Shown: one piece after another, positions 29,385-32,740 of the stretch
Layout of the letters: each line of letters opens with the position of its first letter
Numbering within the stretch: position 1 is the stretch's first letter
DNA from: Raillietiella orientalis
Lineage: Eukaryota
NCBI GenBank assembly: GCA_036172245.1
Contig: JAYWIR010000005.1
Span: forward strand, 620,001 to 684,000
Reading direction: 5' to 3'
Length of the DNA stretch: 64,000 nucleotides
Program-made: the position numbers and the translations under genes
The notes under the pieces: model-generated
Databases searched by the model: none
What the model was told of the DNA's origin: nothing
Seen by the model: only the letters and a program-made list of their open reading frames with translations

Positions 29385-29988
29385 CAGCAGCATAGCTTCT
29401 TGTCTTTTGGCACCAAGTCTCTGCACACCTGTATTGTTTTCATATCTAGATAGCTCACTGTGCAATAAATCCTAAAGGCAGATTCAATGAAGTTCAAATT
29501 TTTTTTTTTCCATGTCTGTTGCATTTTTTTTTACTTTACTTTTTCTGCTCGAGATATTCTCAATTTATCTTGTAAGTTGGCTACTTCTTGAGAACATTGG
29601 TTCAGGTTTTGAACGAGGATTCCATTGGCAAACTCTTGCTCCTGTAACATTTTTTATATTCTTTGTTTCTCATATCATTGGTCACACTACATTCAGAGTG
29701 CTCCTCAAAGCAATAAGTTCCCTGTCTTGTAGACTGCTGAAAGCTTCCTGGCAAACCATGTTTCCATGGTTGTCAATGCAGAGGTTTTCATGAATGTGGC
29801 TGTTGCCTTTGCTTTGTGGAATTTGAAGGGGAAGGAAAGGAAGAGTAGTGTATGCATTACTTACAGTTTTCTGAGATTTGGGGGCTAGTAGATGTGGGAT
29901 ATAAGCATCCAGAAGTATCATGGAAGGTTAGTGCATTTTCCCAAGATTGATGTCGATACTTTTCCAGCTCTTCATATGGCCATTCCAT
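29385..29988 (-). CDS. Four-exon coiled-coil reading frame directly downstream of Akt (possibly the 5' part of the PACT gene)
   Basis: Exons 29988-29865, 29806-29691, 29641-29540 and 29471-29385, joined by GT-AG introns of 58, 49 and 68 nt, give an unbroken frame MEWPYEELEKYRH...QDRELIALRSTLNEQEFANGILVQNLNQCSQEVANLQDKLRISRAEKDLLHSELSRYE...AMLL, ending at another donor. Confidence 0.68.
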
Positions 29989-30084
29989 GTTTGCCAGAGC
30001 AACAGTCACAACTTCATTCTAGAATGTGCTTTGCCATTGTTTCAGAAAAAGACAAGGCTAATAATGATTCACAACAACAAGAGC

Positions 30085-30090
30085 TTTATT
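30085..30090 (-). terminator. Candidate Akt polyadenylation signal AATAAA
   Basis: TTTATT on plus, ~140 nt after the Akt stop, followed on minus by GU/U-rich ttgttgttgtg and ttgtctttttct. Confidence 0.5.
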
Positions 30091-30232
30091 ACATAATGCT
30101 TGCAACATTCTGTGCCAACATAGGCAGCATCAAATATGAAATGGGAAAGGCATAATCCAGACTTGATTTGCGGATTTACATGGGAATGAGATCTGCTTGG
30201 TATTCCTCTTGTGCTAAGTTGGTTAGGAAATA

Positions 30233-32740
30233 TCAGACCAATGCTTGGAGACTCTTGCCAGACCCACTGAACGCATGACTCATTTTTGATGTGTAAGAGA
30301 ACTGGGAAAAGTAATTAGGTTCAGTCTCTTCATTGATGCACTTCAAGCCTTGATCAGGAGGAGTCAGTTCAACACATGCTCCTGTGAATTCAGAGTCGAA
30401 ATAGCGTGTATCCGTATCTGATGTCACTTGGGGCTTGAACAATGGTGGTATCTGCAATTACTGTCGTAAACAAGTTGCAGCTACAAGACTAGGAATACCT
30501 TCTTTGCCACCAAATCTTGCCAGTTTATGTCAGCAAAGAAAGGATGAATCATGATCTCTTTGGAATCACTAGGGCCACCTCCCAGTCTTCTCTCAGGATC
30601 TTTGACCAGCAGGCCACTCAGCAAATGCTTAGCATTCTCAGACATGGTTTTGGGGAAGTGCACCTGCAAGAAAGGGTGAGCACCTCATTTCATATTACAC
30701 ATGTGCTTACTTCCTCCATAACTATAAGTTCAAAGAGAATATCATGGTCTCTGCTATAGAAAGGTAACCTGCCAACCATCATTTCATACATGACCACTCC
30801 TAAGCCCCACCAATCAACTGCTTGTCCGTAATCATTATCTTCTAAAACCTGTAAAACAAAAGTAAGAGAAACATTTTCAAAAATTTTCTTACTTCTGGAG
30901 CCAAGTATTCAGGAGTCCCACAAAATGTTTTCGTTGTATTACCATAGCGGATATGTTCTTTACACAGGCCAAAATCAGTGACCTTAATATGACCATCCTT
31001 ATCCAGCATTAAGTTTTCCAGCTACAACACACCACAATTTCATTTCTATACATATCACTTTCTACTCCACCTTGAGGTCCCTGTAAATGATGCCATGCTC
31101 ATGCAAATAATCAATGGCACTTAAAATTTCTGCACCGTAAAAGCGAGTGCGCTCTTCCGAGAAGCGAATTTCTCGAGACAAATGGAAGAACAATTCACCT
31201 CCATTTGCATATTCCATAACAAAGCAGAGGCGATCAGCAGTTTGGAAGGAGTACTGCAATGTCTAAAGAAGGAGGAATGAGCCATGAATATGGTGCTACC
31301 AACAATAAACATATGCATGTGTGTGCTGAATGAAACAATACAGTATAAATGGCATCTTTTTGCACATCTACGTATATATATGTATGTCATGAGATCACGA
31401 AATTCTTTTTGAGGTTTTCTTTGCAGCGTACTTTTCAGAAATATTTGAAACCTTAGAATCCGTAATTAAGATTTATATATTACATGACGCAAATATTGAA
31501 TTCCCATACTGAATATTTACTGCAGCAGATTCACTAGTTCTCTAAGAACTACAAGAATTAGGATTTATCGTGAAGAATTTTAATTCTTATAACAAAGACC
31601 AAACAGAATACAGCAAATCATGTTTTTAAAACTTATAAAACAAATGTGATGGTGCCCTCTCGGCATAAATGCAAGCATCACAACAACACTAATTTCCATA
31701 CATATAAAACAAAAACAGAATCATATTTGTATCAGCCAATATAGAGAAGCAATAATCTTGCATTGTGCTTGAATTTTGCACCCCTGTTGTATTGGAGGAA
31801 AAAAAAAAAAAACAGAATTCAAATGTCCTTCAAGACAGCATCATAGCATAGGTTGCACAGTACTCAGAAACACATGCAGTCCATTGAAAAAGGTGGACAA
31901 AAAAAACCTTACAGTTAGGAATGGGTGGTTAACCTTCTGAAGCACTCGGTTTTCAGTCAGAGTATGTGCTACTTCATCTTTGGCTATAATGACACCTTTC
32001 TTCAAGATCTTGATTGCATATAAGTGACTAGTTGTTTTTTCTCTACAAAGAATCACTTTTCCAAATGTCCCTTTTCCCAAAACTTTAAGAAATTCAAAGT
32101 TTTCAAAGGTCTATGGGAAACCTGCTGAAGACCCACAGATTGATGCTTATATCTACTTACCACTTTCTTTTTTCCTGAATGCTTACTGGACACTGTGCCT
32201 TGAAGGGCGAACTTAGCTTCCAGTTCAGGATCACTTTTTTCACTTGTGATACTTAGGCTTCTCATATCTACATCCATTGTACTTTCTGTATCTGATAAAC
32301 TTGCTGCTACCTCATCAATGGCTGTCATCCACTCTGTTCTACTTGGGTATAAAAACGAATCAAAAACAGAATACATTAAACAGAATTCTAACCTTTCTTC
32401 TTCTGAAGATGCATTAAAAGTACGCTCAATTACTGTTGTGAGTTGCAAGCCACGAATTATAAATGTATATGGTTTAGGCTTATCAGACTTCATGAGCTGA
32501 CATCCTTTTACTGTGAAATTGTTGAGGGGATCCGAAAAGTCATTATTCTCTGGTTTAGATCGGAAACCAATTAATGAACCATCCTCAAGTAAGTAAAAGT
32601 GTCTAGGCCTCCATGTTTTTATGTGTTCCCCTATGAGAAAAATTCCTTCAAGGGCTTGGATTGCATTGCAAATTACCTCTCTTCAAAAGTAGCCCTTCTT
32701 TGATAATTCTTAGATTTTTAAATTTCAGAGCAGTATCCAT
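30233..32740 (-). CDS. Akt: RAC serine/threonine kinase Akt/PKB
   Basis: PH domain ([20 protein letters not shown]...NNFTVKGCQ...TTVIERTF), kinase motifs [19 protein letters not shown] and [13 protein letters not shown], and hydrophobic motif YFSQFSY. Exons 32740-32677, 32630-32393, 32338-32161, 32110-31913, 31262-31071, 31021-30893, 30848-30711, 30663-30499 and 30451-30233 (nine segments counting the first short exon), all with GT-AG introns. Confidence 0.97.

Follow-up and report, generated by a model that had tools for sequence, protein, structure and literature searches.

Dicistronic and conjoined (read-through) transcripts have been described in animals, for example in Drosophila. For C. 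elegans, with its nematode operons of the SL2 type, a 2021 paper puts the median spacing between cistrons at about 100 bp; it records operons as not reported for copepods and amphipods (PMC7986045). The locus analyzed in this study lies in a window of 64 kb, by which we mean the whole stretch of DNA examined. It resembles the SL2-type operons of C. elegans in having two genes on the same strand, with about 65 nt from a poly(A) signal to a downstream AG and U-rich sequence between them. It is unlike them in that it is known from DNA sequence alone, that its spacing features are generic, and that it belongs, by its Akt, to an arthropod. Compared with the dicistronic and conjoined transcripts, it likewise has close same-strand neighbors, and phase-compatible exons that would permit an in-frame read-through product; unlike them, Akt here has its own stop codon, a complete C-terminal tail, and a poly(A) signal.

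The locus probably represents either two ordinary genes in close tandem or Akt followed by chance open reading frames (ORFs). We tentatively prefer the former, with a probability of roughly 40%: Akt is followed by a small PACT-domain gene, and three short segments behind Akt (E2, E3, and E4) would be the 5' coding exons of that gene.

Akt is a complete gene with its own poly(A) signal

To model the Akt gene, spliced protein-to-DNA alignment was performed with two arthropod Akt proteins, and both gave the identical model. The complete Akt/PKB coding region lies on the minus strand at 30233..32740, from ATG 32740 to the TGA stop at 30235-30233, and consists of 9 coding exons encoding 505 aa. Its introns measure 46, 54, 50, 650, 49, 44, 47, and 47 nt, so that all except the 650-nt intron fall within 44-54 nt, and introns 3-8 are all phase 0. 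As expected of Akt/PKB among the AGC kinases, the protein combines an N-terminal PH domain (Pfam PF00169) with a kinase domain and, at the C-terminus, a tail bearing a hydrophobic motif. Searches returned 130 Akt proteins at E<=1e-10, with 70-74% identity over about 480 residues. The tblastn match ran to within about 7 residues of the C-termini of the homologs, indicating that the C-terminus is complete. Judged by its Akt sequence, the organism appears to be an arthropod; a single-gene Akt tree placed it outside insects, chelicerates, and malacostracans, with no resolution among the other arthropods.

The AATAAA at 30090-30085 (minus strand) is the only canonical poly(A) signal on that strand between 30233 and 28400, that is, within 1.8 kb of the Akt stop, and no ATTAAA was found in the same interval. 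GU- and U-rich sequence follows it, and it is likely the Akt poly(A) signal. Akt most likely ends there, with a 3'UTR of about 170 nt to the predicted cleavage site. That Akt is complete, and that just one canonical poly(A) signal follows it, favors the tandem pair, in which Akt would be a self-contained gene ending at AATAAA 30090.

The spacer behind Akt carries no specific mark of an operon

The preliminary description inferred that the gene behind Akt is transcribed from the Akt promoter, as a dicistronic or trans-spliced unit, a nested arrangement, or an Akt chimera, and compared the close succession of a poly(A) signal, a U-rich stretch, and a splice acceptor with nematode operons. The landmarks themselves were confirmed on the minus strand: the Akt stop and the AATAAA at the positions given above, the sequence cattctag/aat with its AG at 30020-30019, about 65 nt past AATAAA, and an ATG at 29988, 244 nt from the Akt stop. 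Any poly(A) site includes U- or GU-rich sequence downstream of AATAAA. The spacing of poly(A) signal, U-rich stretch, and AG within about 100 nt is present numerically, but across the window an AG follows at a distance of 40-110 nt in 53 of 56 cases of AATAAA, and the spacing is therefore uninformative for the operon reading. The AG at 30019..30020, proposed as the trans-splice acceptor, is one of four AGs between AATAAA and ATG 29988, and only 9 of the 20 bases preceding it are pyrimidines, which is a poor tract. The frame from this acceptor into ATG 29988 is open, as had been claimed, over just 10 codons bounded by the acceptor's own TAG.

We further examined the spacer for promoter motifs by scanning 30400-29690 with consensus sequences for Inr, DPE, TATA, DRE, CCAAT, CRE, and Sp1. 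The scan detected no core-promoter motif in the spacer, which counts against a tandem pair; it returned an Inr-like site that lacked a DPE, and a reverse CCAAT located within Akt coding sequence. The spacer is CpG-poor, as previously described, with a single CpG at 30171. It forms part of a CpG-depleted block at 29300..33900, which includes the gene body of Akt as well as the spacer and the segments E1-E4. Most 200-bp bins of this block have a CpG o/e of 0-0.5, with two at 0.8-1.0, while the flanks are at about 1, and values of 0.12-0.22 extend across 29400-30399. The depletion is unbroken from Akt through the spacer into the candidate exons, and it tails off some 100 nt beyond E4; that it spans E1-E4 is in keeping with the tandem pair. 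We infer that the block is a trace of germline methylation. CpG depletion on this scale suggests that the genome is a methylating one, unlike that of C. elegans, which is not known to be methylated. The sequence at 29300-30240 is unique within the window, and a repeat or transposon origin was rejected.

Co-transcription with Akt could take three forms. The first is a polycistronic pre-mRNA that spliced-leader (SL) trans-splicing would resolve near 30019, and the second is a dicistronic mRNA produced by read-through. In the third, a conjoined transcript, the phase-0 donor of Akt exon 8 at 30499 would be joined in frame to E2. The short spacer of 244 nt with one CpG is consistent with this, as is the assignment to a non-insect arthropod by the Akt tree. 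Since phase 0 is common to Akt introns 3-8 and to E2-E4, read-through splicing would keep the frame. The continuity of the CpG-depleted block from Akt through E4 and the lack of a promoter motif in the spacer point weakly in the same direction. However, the signature is generic, the pyrimidine tract before the candidate acceptor is poor, and the C-terminal tail of Akt is complete and is followed by a poly(A) signal belonging to Akt. Rfam gave 0 matches in the 64 kb, so neither an SL RNA nor any other RNA family was detected in the window, and SL RNA genes may lie elsewhere. In addition, the 2021 paper describes operons as not reported for the trans-splicing arthropod groups (PMC7986045).

Conservation of the gene order was examined in 45 metagenome loci carrying the Akt last exon, 10 of which had at least 1.7 kb and only 4 at least 9 kb of downstream DNA. 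None of the 45 had a PACT or E-exon match: seven window-derived PACT-exon and E-exon queries gave no match at E<=1, and 56 PACT proteins gave none at E<=1e-3. No DNA similarity to these Akt loci was found. The absence of a second instance in this sample counts against co-transcription within the limits of those downstream lengths. None of the features is specific to an operon or to trans-splicing. Taken together, we regard co-transcription as unlikely. Still less credible is the specific version in which Akt and the small PACT-domain gene form one transcription unit in a non-insect arthropod, through a trans-spliced polycistronic precursor processed just upstream of 29988 or a conjoined 30499-to-E2 transcript. 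If co-transcription were true, a growth-signaling kinase would be linked to a centrosome-targeting protein in an operon or conjoined gene of a kind rare among arthropods, and operon-type gene expression would gain a wider known range. On the present evidence the locus matters little; its useful outcomes are a clean Akt model, the correction of a mis-framed ORF, a short divergent PACT-domain gene, and the finding that the "operon signature" is generic here.

Frames and splice sites of the candidate exons

Four segments bounded by GT and AG are present on the minus strand, as had been listed: E1 at 29988-29865, E2 at 29747-29691, E3 at 29641-29540, and E4 at 29471-29385. They had been joined into one in-frame ORF of four exons starting at ATG 29988. 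This reading is out of frame, and translation halts directly after exon 1. E1 (29865..29988) is 124 nt long, ends in phase 1 with the donor ACT/GTAAGT, and its last base is T, while E2, E3, and E4 each begin with GA, so that any junction from E1 to them reads TGA. An open four-exon chain of 303 nt, or 101 codons, exists only from the alternative start ATG 29921 (29865..29921), which contributes 19 codons and whose frame is open into E2-E4. The context of this ATG is weak, with T at -3, and four ATGs lie upstream of it. Its position behind the out-of-frame ATG 29988, whose context is strong (A at -3, G at +4), tells against the tandem pair.

E2 (29691..29747) is 57 nt long and phase 0-0, with the acceptor GCCAG/G and a weak donor, AAT/GTAGTG; the in-frame ATG 29759, located 12 nt upstream, is flanked by A at -3 and G at +4. 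E3 (29540..29641) is 102 nt long and phase 0-0, and follows a 49-nt intron with a weak acceptor. E4 (29385..29471) is 87 nt long and phase 0-0, and follows a 68-nt intron; its donor, CTG/GTAGGT, is strong. The 49- and 68-nt introns are comparable with the short-intron class of Akt, and these Akt-like sizes and the uniform phase 0-0 argue for E2-E4 as exons of a tandem gene, while the weak E2 donor and E3 acceptor argue against it.

The segment from ATG 29988 could instead be a true first exon spliced from 29865 directly to 24513, the only acceptor with which it is in frame, skipping E2-E4 and giving a PACT protein of about 331 aa. The good context of ATG 29988, the perfect GTAAGT donor, and the phase-1 end, which joins 24513 in a frame that stays open as far as the PACT stop, are in favor of this. 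However, such agreement of phase is a one-in-three event, and the acceptor at 24513 is middling, with 13 of 20 pyrimidines vs 18 of 20 at 24631. E1 also gave no homolog in tblastn with the 56 PACT proteins, and its composition score was negative. We consider this model improbable.

Coding evidence for E2-E4 is mixed

To evaluate the coding potential of E2-E4, we ranked them among open segments bounded by AG and GT. By a coil-type composition score, E2, E3, and E4 ranked 1, 8, and 26 among 1084 such segments in the AT-rich 24 kb, and by a log-odds score derived from long PACT-family proteins they ranked 81, 18, and 32 of 4838. The composition ranks support the tandem pair. An Akt-trained codon log-odds score gave ranks of 525, 182, and 147 of 677, which is no support, from a score without power, as the true PACT exon also scored about 0. 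E2-E4 had been called a coiled coil; the coil-like composition was borne out, and the heptad (3.5-residue) hydrophobic periodicity was absent, the observed power being reached by 2172 of 5000 residue shuffles. This is a low-power test, since the exon at 24341-24057, just before the PACT domain, also fails it (786 of 5000).

Similarity searches added little. No homolog of E3 was found when its 40-aa stop-to-stop ORF was compared with proteins of 71-2000 aa, shorter than the longer pericentrins, and Pfam gave no family for six single exons or ORFs. The 101-aa chain gave generic coil matches to the 56 PACT proteins in blastp (best E=0.053). In the reverse tblastn of these proteins against the window, matches outside the last two exons of the PACT gene were weak and scattered (E>=0.01), with a lone match on E3 at E=3.8. 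The lack of a homolog, Pfam match, codon signal, or heptad signal for E2-E4 weighs against the tandem pair.

These results are also consistent with E1-E4 being noncoding, that is, segments left open by chance, lying in the transcribed flank of Akt or in its extended 3'UTR and termination zone, with the PACT gene starting independently about 4 kb further on, from ATG 25533 spliced to 24631 or from an internal ATG near 24472. Open AG/GT chains are common by chance, a further point against the tandem pair: when a chain was defined as at least three phase-0 AG...GT open segments with gaps of 45-120 nt, 1578 of 2456 segments on the plus strand and 1812 of 2686 on the minus strand of the whole window belonged to one. 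The broken ORF from ATG 29988 fits this explanation. So does base composition, as E1-E4 are AT-rich and CpG-poor like Akt vs the GC-rich PACT exons with normal CpG content. Against it, three adjacent top-ranked coil-type segments share the strand of the PACT gene, their intron sizes are typical for the genome, the strong E4 donor and the best acceptor agree in phase, and the Akt 3' end, as set by the sole canonical poly(A) signal, lies upstream of E1. We consider chance ORFs only slightly less likely than the tandem pair as an account of the segments, at less than even odds. A nested layout with coil exons beyond Akt was also considered and rejected, as the minus strand above position 33 kb holds no coil-type ORF save one weak, isolated segment near 36.8 kb.

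A short PACT-domain gene lies downstream on the same strand

A short, divergent PACT-domain gene is present on the minus strand, and its 5' end is represented by candidates only. Among 140 YAG acceptors ranked downstream of E4, that at 24631 has the joint-strongest polypyrimidine tract (18 of 20). It opens a phase-0 exon (24405..24631), is in phase with the E4 donor, and is open for 76 codons and then in frame to the PACT stop. The frame match with E4 favors the tandem pair, as does the lack of another gene on the minus strand between E4 and this acceptor; by chance such phase agreement would arise one time in three. The acceptor is equally in frame with a 4-codon exon from ATG 25533 (donor GTGAGT), exactly the one ATG...GT[AG]AG first-exon candidate between 29384 and 24640. 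This exon lies in CpG-normal, promoter-like sequence, which counts for an independent start of the PACT gene and against E2-E4 as its exons. A composition-scored search between E4 and 24513 gave no convincing further exon, and no further coil-type ORF or exon was found on either strand of the 64 kb.

In an ordinary tandem pair, E2-E4 would be the 5' coding exons of this pericentrin/AKAP450-type gene, entered from ATG 29921 or 29759, not 29988. E4 would then be spliced across a 4.75-kb intron to 24631, and the chain would lead from there to the PACT exon that ends at 23514. Transcription would begin at a putative start site of its own, located downstream of the Akt poly(A) site and within a few hundred bases of it. 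The path from E4 through 24631 to the PACT stop at 23514 gives a model of 430 aa, the largest in-frame model in the window.

A charged exon rich in E, R, and Q (24057..24342) precedes the last exon (23514..23990, stop at 23516-23514), which contains the PACT domain PF10495 (E=5.3e-9, 36.8 bits vs a cut-off of 25). In the "near" search, the PACT ORF matched 0 of 5317 candidates at E<=1e-3. In the search of cluster representatives it matched 56 proteins at E<=1e-3, nearly all with their best match in the PACT region, and the best identity to any database protein was 44-46%, over the PACT domain only. The very long N-terminal coiled coil of the family, thousands of residues in length, was not found in the window, and unlike the long members retrieved, of about 1000 to over 5000 aa, the product here would reach about 430 aa at most. 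Like pericentrin, AKAP450, and insect pericentrin-like proteins, it has a C-terminal PACT domain scoring above the Pfam cut-off, with charged coil-type sequence upstream.

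Akt gene and its 3′ end

Spliced alignment with two arthropod Akt proteins yielded one model for Akt on the minus strand, with nine coding exons from ATG 32740 encoding 505 aa. Its introns measured 46, 54, 50, 650, 49, 44, 47, and 47 nt, and introns 3–8 were in phase 0. Seven of the eight coding introns (30452–32676) belonged to a very narrow minimal-intron class of 44–54 nt, the eighth being 650 nt. The last intron (30498–30452) was followed by the last exon (30451–30233; stop codon, 30235–30233). A PH domain was detected in the product by Pfam, and 130 Akt proteins matched at E ≤ 1e-10. 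Identities were 70–74% over approximately 480 residues, whether the homologue came from an insect, a millipede, or a scorpion. Since the alignment reached approximately 7 residues from the ends of the homologues, Akt is complete, and the chimera with downstream sequence that had been considered is not needed. The AATAAA at 30090 was the only canonical signal on the minus strand from the stop codon to 28400, where no ATTAAA occurred; the 3′ end of the Akt mRNA is probably close to 30065. Upstream on the minus strand, a CCAAT box (as ATTGG) adjoined a perfect TGACGTCA palindrome (CRE) at approximately 34120–34150, with a GTAAGT donor approximately 300 nt downstream (approximately 33836). These weakly suggest what we take, plausibly, to be a conventional Akt core promoter and a first non-coding 5′UTR exon.

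Reading frame downstream of Akt

The preliminary description had placed an in-frame four-exon coiled-coil gene 244 nt behind Akt on the same strand, transcribed from the Akt promoter. The landmarks were all present: AATAAA at 30090–30085 with GU- and U-rich sequence behind it, an AG at 30020–30019, and ATG 29988 (A at −3, G at +4). The 244-nt spacer between the Akt stop codon and this ATG was indeed CpG-poor, containing a single CpG. The candidate exons were E1 (29988–29865; donor GTAAGT), E2 (29747–29691), E3 (29641–29540), and E4 (29471–29385; donor GTAGGT). The joined translation from 29988, however, halted right behind E1. E1 is 124 nt long and therefore ends in phase 1 with T; E2, E3, and E4 each start with GA, so TGA arises at every possible junction. 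Inspection of E1 found no other GT giving phase 0. An open four-exon chain (303 nt, 101 codons) was obtained only from ATG 29921, which has T at −3 and four ATGs upstream. A second in-frame ATG in strong context lay at 29759, 12 nt before E2. Thus, the landmarks are real and the reading frame as first described is not.

PACT gene and its candidate 5′ ends

Farther downstream on the minus strand, the open reading frame 24485–23517 encoded a PACT domain of the pericentrin/AKAP450 kind (PF10495; 36.8 bits, E = 5.3e-9). Its exons included one ending at 24405, one at 24342–24057, and the last at 23990–23514. Among 1.84 billion cluster representatives, 56 proteins matched at E ≤ 1e-3, nearly all only over the PACT region and with identities up to 44–46%; no match was found among proteins of similar length. 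The predicted protein is without close relatives in the databases searched. Pericentrin is typically a giant, whereas this gene is short, and no further coil-type coding sequence was found elsewhere in the 64 kb.

Four 5′ ends were frame-compatible with this gene, each phase match having a one-in-three chance. The first joins E4 to an acceptor at 24631, giving a 430-aa product from ATG 29921; this acceptor (18 of 20 pyrimidines) shared the top rank among the 140 YAG acceptors that follow E4 and was open for 76 codons. In the second, E1 would be spliced from ATG 29988 directly to an acceptor at 24513 (approximately 331 aa), a model we regard as unlikely. The third is a four-codon exon (ATG 25533, donor GTGAGT) joined to 24631; no other candidate of this kind occurred from 29384 to 24640, and the sequence around this exon is CpG-normal. 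The fourth starts at an internal ATG near 24472. Sequence alone permits no choice among the four.

Evidence for and against E1–E4 as exons

Chains of at least three phase-0 AG...GT open segments with 45–120-nt gaps were ubiquitous in the window (1578 of 2456 segments on the plus strand and 1812 of 2686 on the minus strand), which counts against the mere exon-like appearance of E1–E4. An ad hoc score for coil-type composition, applied to the AT-rich 26–50 kb, placed E2, E3, and E4 at ranks 1, 8, and 26 among 1084 AG...GT segments on both strands. Log-odds of PACT-family versus local base composition ranked them 81, 18, and 32 among 4838 segments of the whole window. E3 and E4 were two of 35 distinct loci with log-odds of at least 3.0, the clustering rule merging E2 into E3. 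The introns between E2 and E4 (49 and 68 nt) fit the short-intron class of the genome. An Akt-trained codon score (ranks 525, 182, and 147 of 677) was without power because the true PACT exon also scored approximately zero. The composition of E2–E4 was coil-like, but they lacked heptad periodicity (observed power matched by 2172 of 5000 shuffles), and "coiled-coil" here refers to composition only. E1–E4 matched no Pfam family, E3 was not found in any protein of 71–2000 aa, and the chain showed nothing beyond generic similarity to the 56 PACT proteins.

The odds that E1–E4 are true exons are roughly even. If real, they would make up the 5′ portion of a PACT-domain gene, small and divergent, standing in ordinary tight tandem with Akt, a tentative reading to which we assign a probability of about 0.4. 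That they are chance open reading frames is nearly as likely as the tandem arrangement. The gene behind Akt is putative.

Proposed co-transcription with Akt

The spacing of poly(A) signal, U-rich sequence, and AG, previously read as an operon signature, proved nonspecific: an AG lay 40–110 nt downstream of 53 of the 56 AATAAA sites in the window. Four AGs occurred between AATAAA 30090 and ATG 29988, and the proposed trans-splice acceptor (30020–30019) had 9 pyrimidines among the 20 preceding bases. No Rfam family was detected in the window.

The CpG pattern is the sole observation fitting co-transcription. From approximately 33900 to 29300, most 200-bp bins had observed/expected CpG of 0–0.5, and the flanks were near 1, a contrast suggestive of mosaic gene-body methylation in this organism. 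How CpG depletion relates to methylation in arthropods is reportedly the subject of PMC5915941 and PMC8821070. Within the depleted block lay the body of the Akt gene, the spacer, and E1–E4; its extent matched the Akt transcription unit with approximately 900 nt more on the downstream side. If the depletion reflects germline gene-body methylation, the spacer would have been methylated, a state not usual in active promoters. A scan with consensus sequences found no core-promoter motif in the spacer, a weak negative. The CpG pattern suits a pair of neighboring genes that are both methylated, or the termination zone of Akt, equally well, and we consider co-transcription improbable.

An Akt-pericentrin synteny was not recovered. 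Forty-five metagenome loci carried an Akt last exon (48–83% identity), 10 of them with 1.7–10 kb of downstream DNA, and none of the 45 resembled the PACT exon, E1–E4, or any of the 56 PACT proteins; this weighs only weakly against a conserved pair because the organisms are not close.

In a maximum-likelihood tree of the window Akt and 34 named sequences chosen among the 120 matches listed (the other 86, mostly unnamed, being left out), it fell outside insects (support 88/98), chelicerates (100/93), malacostracans (100/100), and lophotrochozoans (100/97). The top identity in this comparison was 72%, to a branchiopod. This single gene on a long branch goes no further than to suggest an arthropod other than an insect. 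Passages of PMC7986045 describe spliced-leader trans-splicing as absent from insects and occurring in copepods and amphipods, for which operons and polycistronic mRNAs were not reported as of that paper. On those passages, the taxon therefore speaks neither for nor against trans-splicing.

Surrounding sequence

Blocks of 57–68% GC (1–25000 and 52000–64000), with long spurious open reading frames in every frame, flanked a 33–49% GC block (26000–50000) holding Akt and a USP5-like gene. The latter, a USP5/13-like deubiquitinase reading frame on the strand opposite Akt (43828–44529, plus), encoded two UBA domains and part of a UCH domain. A real amino-acid permease gene with GC-rich codons lay in the GC-rich part (60446–62072, plus), and a reverse-transcriptase reading frame (RVT_1; 51171–52214, minus) is probably a retroelement fragment. 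A-rich runs occurred on the minus strand at 27330–27390 (approximately 55 consecutive A) and 26650–26710, and purine-rich GGA/GAA microsatellites near 23150–23290.
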